The notes under the pieces were generated by a model. That model had not been told where the DNA came from and did no database searches. It worked only from the letters and a program-made list of their open reading frames with translations. A program made the translations under genes and the position numbers. 64,000 nt of DNA from Patescibacteria group bacterium. GTDB taxonomy: Bacteria > Patescibacteriota > Patescibacteriia > Veblenbacterales > UBA10138. This document shows, piece by piece, positions 3,117 to 31,380 of this stretch (its first letter is position 1; the number at the start of each line of letters is the position of its first letter). The stretch covers positions 109,781 through 173,780 of the forward strand of contig JAHITT010000001.1 of the NCBI GenBank assembly GCA_018817715.1. Direction: 5' to 3'.

Positions 3117-3836
3117 ATGTCTATAAAAATTGCCGCTGGCCAAATTGAAGTTGGTGACAATATTGAAAAAAATCTACAAAAAATACTACTAGCCATTACC
3201 ACAGCCGCCGCCCAGCAGGCCGACTACCTTTGCCTACCAGAAATCTGTTTGGTATCTGATGAAAAACTAATACGTAATATTAATAAAGAAATCGAACAAA
3301 TTAAACAAGCTGCCAAAAAATATAAAATAAATGTTATCTTTGGCACTTACCTTAAAATAGACGGCCATATTAGAAATCAATTGTGGGTAATTAACAAAAA
3401 TGGCGAAACTATTCATAAGTACAACAAAAAACACACTTTTTTTACCGAACGCTCCACAGTCAAAGAAGGAAAAAACAATAAAGTATTAACTATAGATAAT
3501 TTAAACTTTGCTGTTATAAACTGCTGGGATTACGCCTATCCGGAAGATATACGAAAACTGGCTCGTGATGGTGCCCAGGTTATTTTTTGTCCTAGCTACC
3601 TAGTATCACATCCTCACACTAAAGAAGTTTTAGATAAAATACCCCAAGTGCGAGCTTTTGATTCTATGTCTTACTTTATTATGGTGGATGCTTTTAATAA
3701 AGAAACTTTTAAACGTAGCAAAATTTGTCATCCGCTTAAAACCCTCTCCAGCCTATCTGATTCGCCGGGTATTATTTACGCTACAATTGAATTAACCGCT
3801 ATTACTAAACTGCGTCAGCGTTTTTTGAATTTATAA
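3117..3836 (+). CDS. carbon-nitrogen hydrolase (nitrilase superfamily)
   Basis: AAGQIEVGDNIEKN..., catalytic Cys in the VINCWDYAYPE context. Size and layout typical of CN hydrolases. Confidence 0.7.
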   Translation: MSIKIAAGQIEVGDNIEKNLQKILLAITTAAAQQADYLCLPEICLVSDEKLIRNINKEIEQIKQAAKKYKINVIFGTYLKIDGHIRNQLWVINKNGETIHKYNKKHTFFTERSTVKEGKNNKVLTIDNLNFAVINCWDYAYPEDIRKLARDGAQVIFCPSYLVSHPHTKEVLDKIPQVRAFDSMSYFIMVDAFNKETFKRSKICHPLKTLSSLSDSPGIIYATIELTAITKLRQRFLNL

Positions 3837-3979
3837 AAAACTATCTAAAAATCCCTTAAAAATATCTTAGGGATTTTTTGTTTTAGGGATAGTAAAAATT
3901 TCGTCTCGTACCCTTCGATTCCTCTTATTTATCCAACTAAAAACAAAACACCCCACCCAAACGGTGAGGTAATTTGTCT

Positions 3980-4054
3980 TGGCAGGGGTGGTAGGAATCG
4001 AACCCACGTCATTGGTTTTGGAGACCAAGGTCCTGCCACTGAACGACACCCCCA
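3980..4054 (-). tRNA. tRNA-Trp (anticodon CCA)
   Basis: Reverse complement folds as a cloverleaf with anticodon loop CUCCAAA, T-loop GGTTCGATTCC and encoded CCA end. Confidence 0.8.
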
Positions 4055-4072
4055 TAATCCGCACTTAACGGA

Positions 4073-4228
4073 TTACTTGGTCTCTTTATGTAAAACGTGC
4101 TTCTTACACCAATTGCAATGCTTTTTGGTTTCCAAACGAGTTTTAACTTTTTTCTTGTTACGGAAAGAATGGTAGTTAATGCGATGACAATCGCTACACT
4201 CCATCTTAATAAGATTATCCTGTGACAT
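4073..4228 (-). CDS. rpmG: 50S ribosomal protein L33 (zinc-ribbon form)
   Basis: 51-aa ORF absent from the ORF track: MSQDNLIKMECSDCHRINYHSFRNKKKVKTRLETKKHCNWCKKHVLHKETK. CxxC...CxxC plus the KHVLHKE motif match L33. Confidence 0.8.
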   Translation of the reverse strand: MSQDNLIKMECSDCHRINYHSFRNKKKVKTRLETKKHCNWCKKHVLHKETK

Positions 4229-4265
4229 ATAATATAGAAAGTAATAATTAAAATTAATTTTAAAC

Positions 4266-4341
4266 TGGAGCCGATGGTCGGGTTCGAACCGACGACCTAC
4301 AGTTTACAAAACTGTTGCTCTACCAACTGAGCTACATCGGC
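4266..4341 (-). tRNA. tRNA-Thr (anticodon UGU)
   Basis: Acceptor stem GCCGATG/CATCGGC, anticodon loop TTTGTAA, T-loop GGTTCGAACC, CCA encoded. Confidence 0.85.
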
Positions 4342-4391
4342 CCATTCTTTAATAATTTATGGTTCACCCTAAGCAAGCACAGCGAGTTGAA

Positions 4392-4411
4392 TGGTGGGCC
4401 GAGTAGGATTC
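4392..4411. repeat. exact 20-nt direct repeat of the tRNA-Tyr 3' end (includes CCA), 136 nt downstream of the tRNA
   Basis: tggtgggccgagtaggattc occurs at 4392-4411 and again at 4548-4567 (the 3' end of tRNA-Tyr). Flanking sequence differs. Confidence 0.75.
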
Positions 4412-4547
4412 TCCCTCGCTCCGACTCGGGCACCCGGGCGCTACACACAAAAACCTGCGCTCGCTCGGTTTTTTCTCGCGCCCTTCGAATCCTTTTCCAT
4501 CCCCCCAAATATTCAAAGGTCGACTAATTATCTTTTTATATTCAAAG

Positions 4548-4634
4548 TGGTGGGCCGAGTAGGATTCGAACCTACGAAGGCATAAAGCCAGCAGATTTAC
4601 AGTCTGCCCCGTTTGACCGCTTCGGTACCGACCC
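4548..4634 (-). tRNA. tRNA-Tyr (anticodon GUA), long variable arm, CCA encoded
   Basis: Anticodon stem-loop GCAGA-CTGTAAA-TCTGC, long variable arm, T-loop GGTTCGAATCC, 87 nt. Confidence 0.85.
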
Positions 4635-4654
4635 TTAAAAATTTGTCCCCCCTG

Positions 4655-4727
4655 AGCCGATGCGCGGATTCGAACCGCGGACCTACTCCTTACCATGGAG
4701 TTGCTCTACCAACTGAGCTACATCGGC
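4655..4727 (-). tRNA. tRNA-Thr (anticodon GGU)
   Basis: Acceptor GCCGATG/CATCGGC, anticodon loop ATGGTAA, T-loop GGTTCGAATCC. No CCA encoded. Confidence 0.85.
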
Positions 4728-4812
4728 TCGCGAAGGACAAAATCTAATTTTTAAAAAGTGGCCTTACTTTGACCAATTTAAAATCTTTAAATATTTATCA
4801 ACCAAACTAATT

Positions 4813-5748
4813 TTAATCTATTTTAACACCAAAACTAGTAATTTTCTTACTAGACCGTCTTTTAATTGGTTTATTTTTTTGAACCTGTGCTCTAATTTGT
4901 TCGGTAAAGTCATTAATTTTTTGATTGTCTGAATTTACCTCGCGTAAAACATCTAAAGCTTCCTGTGCCTCGTTCAGATGCCCATTTACTATACTGAGTT
5001 CTATATAAAAGTCAAGCACTTTAGGGCTATTAGGCTCCAATTCTCGAGCTTCAGTCAAATGAGCTAAGGCCTGATTAAAATCACCTAATTGTTGATAGAC
5101 ATAAGCCAACTCCAAATGGAGCTGAATAGTATTTTTAAGAGCCAAACTTTTAAGATACTGACCCTTAGCTTCTTCTAAAAAACCCTGACCTTGAGCTACT
5201 TTAGCTAAACCCAAAGAAGAATAACGAGCCCGACCTTGTTCTGCTAAATATTCCAAAACTTCTTTAGCTTGCTCGTAATCTCTAGTTTCCAAATACACAT
5301 CAGCCAAGCTTTGATAAATATCCAAATTAGTTGGCTGGTGTTGAATAGCGCTTAAATATAAATTCTCTGCTTCGGCTAAATCCCCTTCCTGCTTAGCCTG
5401 CTCAGCCTTGTTTAAAATTTTTGCCACTACTTCCTCAACTTTACCCAAAGATACTTCCTGCTGAGCCACCTTCTCTTCCATTTGTTGAACAGATTGTTTT
5501 AACTGATCCTGTTTGAACTGAATTTTTTTATACCAAGGATCAAATTGTTTTTTAAGCCAACGCTTGCCTCTTTGTAACTTACGCTGTAAACGAGCTTCCA
5601 CTAAATCTTGTTTAACTTCTTGCTGTTTTAAACCGCTTAAATTATCCACATCAATTAATTTAAGGATGGGAAACTTACCAATAGCTAAAACAATCAAACC
5701 TACTAGACCCAACAACAAAACTATAACCAAAATAATATCGATTACCAT
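4813..5748 (-). CDS. membrane-anchored TPR-repeat protein
   Basis: N-terminal TM helix, then a coiled-coil region, then several TPR-like repeats (AEAENLYLSAIQHQP, YQSLADVYLETRDYEQA, LELAYVYQQLGDFNQA). Confidence 0.55.
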   Translation of the reverse strand: MVIDIILVIVLLLGLVGLIVLAIGKFPILKLIDVDNLSGLKQQEVKQDLVEARLQRKLQRGKRWLKKQFDPWYKKIQFKQDQLKQSVQQMEEKVAQQEVSLGKVEEVVAKILNKAEQAKQEGDLAEAENLYLSAIQHQPTNLDIYQSLADVYLETRDYEQAKEVLEYLAEQGRARYSSLGLAKVAQGQGFLEEAKGQYLKSLALKNTIQLHLELAYVYQQLGDFNQALAHLTEARELEPNSPKVLDFYIELSIVNGHLNEAQEALDVLREVNSDNQKINDFTEQIRAQVQKNKPIKRRSSKKITSFGVKID

Positions 5749-31104: not shown

Positions 31105-31180
31105 GGGTCCATAGCTCAGCTGGTAGAGCAGCGGCCTTTTAAGCCGCGTGTCGTGGGTTCGAGCCCCACTGGACCCACCA
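31105..31180 (+). tRNA. tRNA-Lys (anticodon UUU), CCA encoded
   Basis: GGGTCCATAGCTCAGCTGGTAGAGCAGCGGCCTTTTAAGCCGC...GGTTCGAGCCCCACTGGACCCACCA, anticodon loop CTTTTAA. Confidence 0.85.
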
Positions 31181-31236
31181 TCCCGTCTGACGGGATTTAT
31201 TCGGTCTTACAACTCCATTCAATAGAATGGAGTTTT
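31181..31236 (+). terminator. two consecutive hairpins after tRNA-Lys (cccgtctgacggga; aactccattc-aatag-aatggagttttt)
   Basis: Inverted repeats, the second followed by a T-run. Confidence 0.5.
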
Positions 31237-31360
31237 TGATTATATGGGGATCGAAGGGTACGGATAAAAAGTGAACTGCTTCACTTTTTAGATGACCCCA
31301 GCTCTTTTTGGGAAAAATCGAGCCTTCTTCAAAGGAGAGTGCGAAATTTTGGGAAAAGAG

Positions 31361-31380
31361 GAGCCCCACTGGACCCACCA
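31361..31380. repeat. exact 20-nt direct repeat of the tRNA-Lys 3' end (gagccccactggacccacca), 200 nt downstream
   Basis: Identical to 31161-31180. Flanks differ. att-site-like. Confidence 0.75.

Follow-up and report, generated by a model that had tools for sequence, protein, structure and literature searches.

A folded, gene-less unit closed by a copy of the tRNA 3' end recurs behind tRNA genes of Patescibacteria and Clostridia

A 64,000-nt stretch of a Patescibacteria group bacterium genome (assembly GCA_018817715.1, contig JAHITT010000001.1, positions 109,781 to 173,780; hereafter the window, in whose own numbering its positions are given) carries behind its tRNA-Tyr gene a spacer that ends in an exact duplicate of the last 20 nt of that gene. 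The duplicate is the 3' boundary of a 156-bp gene-less insertion, and sequence comparison marks the spacer as a full member of a family that has apparently not been described, with more than 150 units of the same build identified in genomes and metagenomes combined. A three-way-junction fold of the units is supported by covariation, and the balance of the evidence tilts towards a non-autonomous structured mobile element that would recombine at the tRNA T-loop, be recognised as a folded single strand and be served by an unlinked activity. Individual loci other than those of the window are referred to by labels of the form L123.

A 156-bp insertion behind tRNA-Tyr

The minus strand of the window carries tRNA-Thr(GGU) (4654-4727), tRNA-Tyr(GUA) (4548-4634; Rfam tRNA model, 55 bits), tRNA-Thr(UGU) (4266-4341), the ribosomal protein L33 open reading frame (ORF) rpmG (4073-4228; Pfam PF00471, E=7.7e-16) and tRNA-Trp (3980-4053), each of the tRNAs being called by both ARAGORN and Rfam; the order Thr-Tyr-X-Thr-rpmG-Trp given in a preliminary description of this DNA is thereby upheld. 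The 20-mer GAATCCTACTCGGCCCACCA, corresponding to tRNA-Tyr positions 57-76 (G57 of the T-loop to the encoded CCA), has two exact occurrences in the 64 kb: as the last 20 nt of the gene (copy 1, 4548-4567) and, downstream across a distance of 136 nt, at 4392-4411 (copy 2), where an exact copy of the Tyr 3' end including CCA had indeed been reported. No match, even with up to three mismatches, was obtained in 100 dinucleotide shuffles. The intervening 136 nt were correctly described as non-tRNA sequence, with no tRNA call there by ARAGORN or the Rfam tRNA model; a search of 3800-4800 against Rfam 15 at E<=10 returned tRNAs only, plus a tmRNA_permuted match at E=0.22, and the spacer holds no coherent ORF, only overlapping chance ORFs being listed.

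Read in the direction of the tRNA, the unit opens with an A/T-rich, unconserved trailer of 54 nt (4494-4547), which belongs to the inserted DNA, being missing from relatives with an empty site; a terminator-like site was looked for in this trailer and none was found. P1a, the 7-nt 'guide' AGGATTC (4487-4493), is the reverse complement of tRNA-Tyr 57-63 (GAATCCT), was recovered as an inverted repeat in the window scan, and pairs with the start of copy 2 at 7/7 positions. It is followed by the junction GAA between P1 and P2 (4484-4486; invariant alignment columns), by P2 (4436-4483), in which GGGCGC (4478-4483) pairs with GCGCCC (4436-4441) around an inner hairpin (4449-4474) with the conserved apical loop GAGCGAGCGCA (4456-4466), by the junction GGG (4433-4435) between P2 and P3, and 3' of this by the P3 hairpin TGCCC-GAGTCGGAGCGA-GGGA (within 4412-4435). 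Copy 2 closes the unit, its first seven bases (4405-4411) forming P1b and the remainder (4392-4404), acceptor 3' strand plus CCA, being unpaired in the family consensus. The sequence at 4342-4391 aligns to the post-CCA flank of tRNA-Tyr in the relatives L125 and L022, and is the native 3' flank of the gene, pushed downstream. From the tRNA end to GAAGGG the distance is 61 nt, the family median. Situated mid-operon (Thr-Tyr-Thr-rpmG-Trp) with no terminator on either side, the unit holds a position which implies that it is transcribed. The trailer also contains a 10-nt direct repeat, CTTTGAATAT, the first copy of which (4538-4547) lies directly 3' of the CCA and the second (4509-4518) 29 nt further on, both on the minus strand.

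A family of units of common build

A scan of 185,579 species-representative genomes with the pattern TTCGANNCC-N{60,90}-GGRWTCGAAGGGYRCG identified at least 120 loci; chance would yield about 8 on our own estimate. Among the matches listed, 107 lie at genuine GGTTCGA T-arms, and 65 of these feature an exact copy of the tRNA 3' part, 85-234 nt past the tRNA (exactness being judged on a 12-nt seed, which extends to at least 17 nt in nearly all 65); the copy's left edge falls at tRNA position 56 or 57 in 61/65. The rest of the listed matches are mostly copies with 1-3 mismatches, with a few truncated relics. In a second scan, of metagenome contigs, the core and GAATCC were required and a tRNA was not; of the 76 matches, 58 have a tRNA on their own strand no more than 400 nt upstream, GAAGGG following the tRNA end at a median of 61 nt (26-69 nt in 54/58), and those lacking a tRNA are for the most part contig edges or GC-rich matches due to chance.

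The units come mainly from Patescibacteria, of many classes, and from Clostridia of the rumen or gut, with a few in Spirochaetes, and they are carried by at least 26 tRNA anticodon types, most commonly Tyr, Arg, Lys, Ser, Trp and Glu. Several metagenome-assembled genomes (MAGs) labelled 'uncultured Gammaproteobacteria' or 'Bdellovibrionales' bear the Patescibacterial subtype (L007, L041, L051, L055, L057, L060, L119, L061, L120); these labels are probably wrong, because several of the MAGs share the TPR-Thr-Tyr-Thr-Trp operon and the TPR protein cluster of the candidate phyla radiation (CPR; that is, Patescibacteria).

Units measure about 100-250 bp and, on the tRNA strand, follow the order tRNA, trailer, P1a, GAA, P2, NGG, P3, copy of tRNA 57-76. 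The trailer is some 40-60 nt long, poorly conserved, and usually contains a terminator-like hairpin; P1a comprises 7-9 nt complementary to positions 57-65 of the upstream tRNA; and P2 takes the form GGGYRCG...CGYRCCC around a variable hairpin, the GAGCGAGCGCA loop being conserved in the window's subtype. The Clostridial subtype features a P3 of the form CCGNC-CGCA-GNCGG, with swaps. With the first 7-9 nt of copy 2 paired to P1a, the repeat itself provides one strand of helix P1. Searches of the literature, by concept and by sequence, returned nothing relevant to the family.

A three-way junction supported by covariation

RNAalifold recovered P1 and P2 from 36 units. In that alignment, which covers all subtypes, 93.5% of cells at paired positions can pair, compared with 84.8% in shuffles (0/500), with a covariation score of 0.243 against 0.092 (0/500) and only 31-53% pairing in slid controls; swaps of CG to UA and of GC to AU, in both directions, are seen in P2. 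For the window's subtype, aligned almost without gaps, the 27 pairs show 89.7% pairing compared with 80.6% in shuffles (0/500) and all helices are supported, P3 having double-sided changes at 5/5 pairs with 95% of cells paired, and the inner P2 hairpin compensatory changes at 4/6 pairs. Watson-Crick pairing in P1, assessed in 65 units, is about 95% at tRNA positions 57-63, 55-60% at 64-65 and no better than random from there on. In 46/64 units (p=3e-6) the sense strand has a better fold than the antisense. Folded singly, the Tyr unit retains P2 in its minimum free energy (MFE) structure, but an alternative 3' pairing gains 5 kcal/mol over the consensus fold (-40.0 vs -34.9 kcal/mol), so the claim of a fold rests on comparative evidence, not on thermodynamics.

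A covariance model built from the alignment scores the Tyr unit (4392-4496) at 83 bits, as a member of its training set, and a second unit behind tRNA-Lys, which lies outside that set, at 19.6 bits (E=0.004); it has no further match in the window. The comparison against Rfam that the preliminary description had proposed for the spacer yielded no family at the gathering score or at E<0.01, with hammerhead, twister, HDV-like, pistol, hatchet and tmRNA models among those covered, and its alternative suggestion, a small structured RNA in the spacer, holds as regards structure, which covariation among the aligned sequences supports. In 16 unit-bearing loci Rfam identified only tRNAs and one unrelated Gut-1, and nothing within the unit region of L036, the Clostridiales MAG locus concerned; there, Gut-1 RNA (RF01706, 50.7 bits) lies at 5448-5518 on the plus strand with a partial second copy at 5540-5600 on the minus strand, a short-hairpin array with GUGAAAU-like spacers just past the unit's terminator and unrelated to the unit.

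Two other readings of P1a and the tail were discarded. Were P1a a copy of T-stem positions 49-56, it would reproduce that strand at G.U-containing T-stems (tRNA-Trp GTGGG/CCTAC) and TTCGATT loops, where it is instead the Watson-Crick complement (GTAGGAATC); and a minihelix mimic, in which the acceptor tail 66-72 pairs upstream of P1a, is contradicted by near-random pairing beyond position 65.

Two further copies in the window

A repeat scan detected that spacer positions 4469-4496 resemble 3899-3926, downstream of tRNA-Trp, each segment including a 10-nt reverse complement of the T-loop of its own upstream tRNA, down to the matching A/T difference. The shared motif GGAWTCGAAGGG has three near-matches only in the 64 kb, each 55-66 nt past a tRNA 3' end, the tRNAs being Tyr, Trp and Lys. 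The GGRWTCGAAGGGYRCG motif, which a family member is proposed to carry 49-69 nt past a same-strand tRNA, was accepted in all three, at 61 nt (Tyr), 72 nt (Lys) and 63 nt (Trp) from the tRNA end; P1a complementarity to tRNA 57-63 together with a closing copy of 57-73/76 is present at Tyr and Lys and missing at Trp.

The second unit (31181-31380, plus strand) belongs to a different subtype and lies behind tRNA-Lys(UUU) (31105-31180, plus), the last 20 nt of which (31161-31180) constitute copy 1. All of its parts are likewise on the plus strand: a terminator-like hairpin in the trailer (31211-31234), P1a GGGGATC (31246-31252), GAA (31253-31255), P2 (31256-31299), P3 (31302-31360) and copy 2 (31361-31380), an exact 20-nt copy of tRNA-Lys 57-76. 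Its unconstrained MFE fold is the family three-way junction (z=-2.2). P1a pairs at 6/7 positions, with one A.G mismatch to GAGCCCC. The third copy (3837-3979, minus), behind tRNA-Trp, comprises a terminator (3949-3971, minus) and, 3' of it, P1a+GAAGGGTACGAG (3905-3924, minus); the P2 3' strand, P3 and the copy of the tRNA end are all missing, it is not matched by the covariance model, and it was classed as a decayed relic because it has no copy of the tRNA end. Behind the orthologous tRNA-Trp, full units are present in L051 and L057, and in L022 a relic like that of the window.

The genes flanking the window units encode a TPR protein, L33, a Na/Ca exchanger and a sortase (Pfam). An independent assembly of the window's organism (L002, Logan SRR6514274) stops inside tRNA-Lys just before the unit, 106 nt past the Na/Ca-exchanger gene, and a run of Ns lies within a tandem array in L102; the break in L002 is consistent with these repeats causing assembly breaks.

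Occupied, empty and stacked sites in relatives

At the orthologous tRNA-Tyr the relative L123 (TPR identity 73%) has the unit, with C66 in both tRNA and copy 2 where the window has T66 in both; L126 (TPR 59%) has a degenerate unit; and L125 (TPR 71%) has none, the CCA being followed directly by TTCGACTCGC...GCTCGCTCATGGTGAAC, the homologue of the window sequence after copy 2. The site is likewise empty in L022 (TPR 51%). Across 11 orthologous CPR operons both the Tyr and the Trp units are patchy, being present, absent or decayed, and none of the 11 has a tRNA-Gly between Tyr and the second Thr. At all loci the geometry is that of tRNA 57-76, trailer, P1a and core inserted at 56/57 or, equivalently, of trailer, P1a, core and 57-76 placed after the CCA.

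Units also accumulate at single tRNAs. Tandem arrays have been identified in L120 (at least three units of 105 nt), L065, L102 and L118/L050, and stacks at one tRNA include different core types; the flank after copy 2 in L046 resembles the trailer of L063, and that of L123 is the tRNA-proximal trailer of L126. Similarity between trailer and post-copy-2 flank persists in only 28/124 units, mostly in tandem arrays, and in neither window unit, on which ground a simple target-site duplication running from position 57 to the terminator was rejected.

Cores are 85-99% identical across units at different tRNAs, while trailers and distal flanks show background similarity. L008 and L069, in a single MAG, have precisely P1a-core-GAATCCC in common but nothing beyond it, and the P1a of L008 fits the tRNA of L069 better than its own. 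L013 and L058 have as copy 2 the tail of a related tRNA (L020-type), the functional tRNA keeping a perfectly paired acceptor stem. Together with the P1a of the window's Lys unit, which fits a GATCCCC T-loop better than its own tRNA, these cases indicate that the exchange or conversion of cores does not depend on the repeats and that copies can fossilise. The repeat ends at CCA in most units and at the terminator T-tract in several. Copy 2 carries CCA behind tRNA genes that do not encode it in L023, L088 and L097, whereas at the CCA-less genes of L021, L038, L042, L057, L081 and L100 the copies carry genomic non-CCA trailers; the CCA evidence is thus mixed, and mature tRNA as the general source of copy 2 was set aside.

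Gene content and the search for a partner

At about 190 loci, no unit was found to contain a gene. When 1,512 ORFs from 120 loci were clustered all against all, no recurrent recombinase or mobility gene emerged near units, only housekeeping neighbours, the top clusters being ABC transporter, TPR, FtsX, RecG, TsaD, SmpB, sigma-70, T2SSE and Hsp20. No copy of the unit is present in E. coli genomes.

Small GIY-YIG nuclease ORFs (76-84 aa) occupy the Tyr-Thr slot of some relatives (L125:4036-4290, L022:495-722, L051:5262-5489) and also lie just upstream of unit-bearing tRNAs in L018, L078 and L081. They seemed promising as a partner because their flanking inverted repeats, TTCGACTCGCT / AGCGAGTCGAA, resemble the unit P3 loop (CGAGTCGGAGCGAG); they occur near the tRNAs in only 7/128 loci, however, and are absent from the window, where 4381-4391 retains a sequence like the left repeat (TTCAACTCGCT) and no GIY-YIG ORF, and so were rejected as the linked enzyme.

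Mobile element, host RNA or scar

Patchiness, arrays, stacking, relics and cores shared between tRNAs argue for selfish mobile DNA, and two tRNAs of the window, both with exact 20-nt repeats starting at position 57, provide evidence for insertion. The reading that we favour, without great assurance, is accordingly a non-autonomous structured element entering at the T-loop between positions 56 and 57, in a manner that would be equivalent to Campbell-type insertion of a circle comprising tRNA 57-76, trailer, P1a and core. The tRNA would be kept intact, the element bringing a replacement 3' end and usually also a terminator; what an unlinked, trans-acting recombination or repair activity recognises would be the folded single strand, on which P1 presents the site of crossover; arrays might arise from repeated insertion next to the tRNA or by rolling-circle or unequal exchange; and decay would yield relics such as the Trp copy. 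Several points weigh against it. A double-stranded circle of 105-250 bp is an awkward substrate for recombination, and Campbell insertion with a heterologous repeat would make chimeric tRNAs. The filled/empty polymorphism can also be produced by deletion between the 20-nt repeats, and hence does not prove insertion. The Lys P1a fits GATCCCC yet both repeats are of Lys type, so cores would have to move or convert apart from the repeats. No recombinase, reverse transcriptase or autonomous parent was found in the roughly 190 loci, nor any recombinase or reverse transcriptase among 10 Pfam-checked ORFs beside the two window units, and a pattern scan of viral contigs and searches of the INPHARED phages and PLSDB plasmids returned 0 copies. 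The Tyr and Trp units, moreover, recur in the same operon across distant CPR classes with very small genomes, and copy 2 tracks lineage-specific acceptor-stem changes (T66 in the window, C66 in L123), a persistence and a tracking that could reflect selection for a host function.

Such a function, in which the unit is a host-serving structured RNA, co-transcribed with or read through from the tRNA and acting on it in cis or in trans, is an alternative of some substance, albeit on the improbable side. Suggested roles include processing of the 3' end or of the operon, a decoy for enzymes or toxins that act on the T-arm and acceptor end, and a source of RNA resembling tRNA 3' fragments, with P1a and tail held matched to the tRNA by selection or gene conversion. 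The compensatory changes and invariant junction nucleotides of the three-way junction, the favoured folding of the sense strand, the tight spacing from the tRNA, the terminator-free position of the Tyr unit within its operon, the units behind Tyr and Trp in that operon of distant tiny-genome lineages, and the agreement of copy 2 with acceptor-stem changes would all be expected of it. It accommodates poorly, by contrast, a placement that for most units is behind a terminator-like hairpin with no promoter-like signal, a distribution so patchy that even close relatives have clean empty sites or decayed relics, the tandem arrays and mixed-core stacks at one tRNA, the fossil copies of L013 and L058 that no longer match the local tRNA, and the spread over 26 tRNA types with no consistent set per genome. 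The element might, on the other hand, be its own agent: that the three-way junction and a 7-nt guide to 57-63 make up a protein-gene-free, self-inserting element exchanging strands at 56/57, whether by ribozyme action or by hijacking universal host enzymes as their folded single-stranded substrate, and copied behind tRNA genes through a small circular RNA or single-stranded DNA intermediate, is considered unlikely. The RNA-mediated form of this idea, distinctly unlikely in our view, has P1a serve as internal guide to positions 57-63 of the tRNA or its gene and the core catalyse or scaffold exchange at 56/57, after which host enzymes would make a DNA copy of the chimeric or circular RNA behind the tRNA gene. 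The guide-like drop in complementarity beyond position 63, a strand topology (P1a-J-P2-J-P3-J-P1b) equal to that of a type I hammerhead with its reactive junction at the P3/P1b border, the missing protein partner in cis, repeats that end at the T-tract or the CCA, that is, at the 3' ends of a primary or mature transcript, the CCA-bearing copies of L023, L088 and L097, and arrays compatible with rolling-circle copying are consistent with it, whereas the core has the conserved nucleotides of no known self-cleaving ribozyme and no Rfam match, many CCA-less tRNA genes have copies of genomic non-CCA trailers, and no reverse transcriptase is linked.

The preliminary description had taken the duplicate for the attachment-site (att) scar of a phage or integrative element, attL/attR at tRNA-Tyr with nearly all the intervening DNA later lost. 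The geometry stands, in that a direct repeat of the tRNA 3' end begins in the T-loop and native flank follows the distal repeat, as the flanks of L125 and L022 confirm, and classical, unrelated partial tRNA duplications are present at tRNAs in relatives; the loss of most of an element does not, the spacer being a complete family unit. The supposed remnant is a conserved, covarying structure of constant small size at more than 150 loci in at least two well-sampled phyla and a few Spirochaete loci, a family-wide conservation because of which a random remnant of a large prophage was ruled out; neither coding remnants nor a long version exist at any locus, no integrase or other element gene was found between or beside the repeats, the viral, phage and plasmid collections gave no match that could be a free attP, and the architecture occurs twice more in the window. 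With the repeat forming part of a conserved fold in relatives, an outcome close to one that the preliminary description had itself named as refuting, a plain scar is very improbable. Scarcely credible is a degenerate tRNA, be it a lost tRNA-Gly or a tRNA pseudogene. A tRNA-Gly had been expected in the Tyr-Thr slot, which corresponds to that of glyT in the E. coli thrU-tyrU-glyT-thrT arrangement, and the segment is GC-rich with a tRNA-like end; neither ARAGORN nor Rfam detects a tRNA-like fold, however, the 3' end is of Tyr and not Gly type, the 5' part is the conserved non-tRNA core, and no same-operon relative has a tRNA-Gly here, so that the slot was not vacated.

Likeness to known systems

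The closest parallel in geometry is provided by the tRNA att sites of tyrosine integrases (T-loop sublocation class) and by remnants resembling cis-mobilisable elements, which have the same direct repeat from T-loop to 3' end, the same intact proximal tRNA, native flank after the distal repeat, and tandem or serial build-up at one tRNA; the units differ in their size of about 100-250 bp, in having no gene, integrase remnant or autonomous parent, in a folded core with a target-complementary segment abutting the repeat, and in cores common to different tRNAs. Integron attC sites and the attP(+) of CTX phage, used by XerCD, are folded single-stranded recombination sites. Like the units, they conserve structure above sequence, form an imperfect end-to-end helix with exchange at the helix end, occur in arrays and encode no gene in the site; unlike them, the units have no similarity to IntI or Xer sites and no cassette ORF, are directed at a tRNA T-loop, and have a helix partner that complements the target itself, and any folding of their DNA is putative.

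Short element-borne pairing to the target beside the junction is likewise a feature of the group I intron internal guide sequence, the arms of trans-acting hammerheads, the guides of IS200/IS605 and the bridge RNA of IS110; the units lack conserved catalytic nucleotides, an Rfam match and a transposase or recombinase, and at least 20 nt of target are duplicated. Resemblance to the type I hammerhead is limited to the three-helix topology, the junctions here being GAA, NGG and 0-1 nt in place of CUGANGA, GAAA and a cleavable NUH, and this assignment was rejected. Miniature inverted-repeat transposable elements and repetitive extragenic palindromic (REP)-like repeats are, as are the units, short, non-coding and multi-copy (three in 64 kb here), with terminal inverted complementarity and a stable fold, but the units are strictly at tRNA 3' ends with fixed spacing, have one 'terminal repeat' derived from the target and a core conserved across phyla, and no autonomous transposase-encoding relative was found at the loci examined. 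Permuted tmRNA and split tRNA genes share with the units a free-standing tRNA 3' portion (T-region, acceptor 3' strand, CCA) beside structured RNA, and weak Rfam tmRNA_permuted matches (E=0.22 and 0.93) fall far under the gathering score; the units have neither a 5' acceptor partner nor a tag reading frame, and an intact tRNA lies upstream.

Other rearrangements at tRNA 3' ends

Partial tRNA duplications with no GAAGGG core were also observed (L081:3106-3300, L051:5043-5150, L125:3675-3790, L051:4753-4860), beginning in the anticodon loop, the variable/T-arm region or the T-loop and lying behind tRNA-Trp, Tyr and Thr(GGU). In L123 (1533-1860) a tRNA-Thr(UGU) is apparently split into a 5' fragment, GCCGATGTAGCTCAGTTGGTAGA, and a 3' fragment, CCATCGGCTCCA, flanking about 290 nt in which two further tRNA-Thr(UGU)-like genes lie, as though incoming copies had taken the place of the original gene. 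L126 has behind its tRNA-Trp a tRNA-Trp-like pseudogene (4884-5003) in which the anticodon region is of UCA type; a hairpin some 29 nt long is inserted in its T-loop at about 55/57, the same T-loop position as the unit junction, and its 3' end copies that of tRNA-Trp with 2 mismatches. The 3' ends of tRNAs are general recombination hot-spots in these CPR genomes.

Implications

If the present account is true, a structured mini-element, common yet unannotated, is carried by the tRNA genes of two very large bacterial groups that are mostly uncultured, and many 'partial tRNA' or tRNA-fragment calls and tRNA-adjacent assembly breaks would be explained. A repeat from T-loop to CCA would then be, on its own, no evidence of a lost prophage. 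The covariance model and search patterns enable a genome-wide census and phylogenetic profiling for a partner enzyme. The combination of a three-way junction, a target-matched guide and a tRNA 3' tail would be a candidate for guide-directed recombination, or for ribozyme-like or tRNA-mimicking activity, and such elements would sit in tiny genomes with little room for junk; should the self-inserting reading prove true, they would constitute a new minimal class of mobile element across Patescibacteria and Clostridia.

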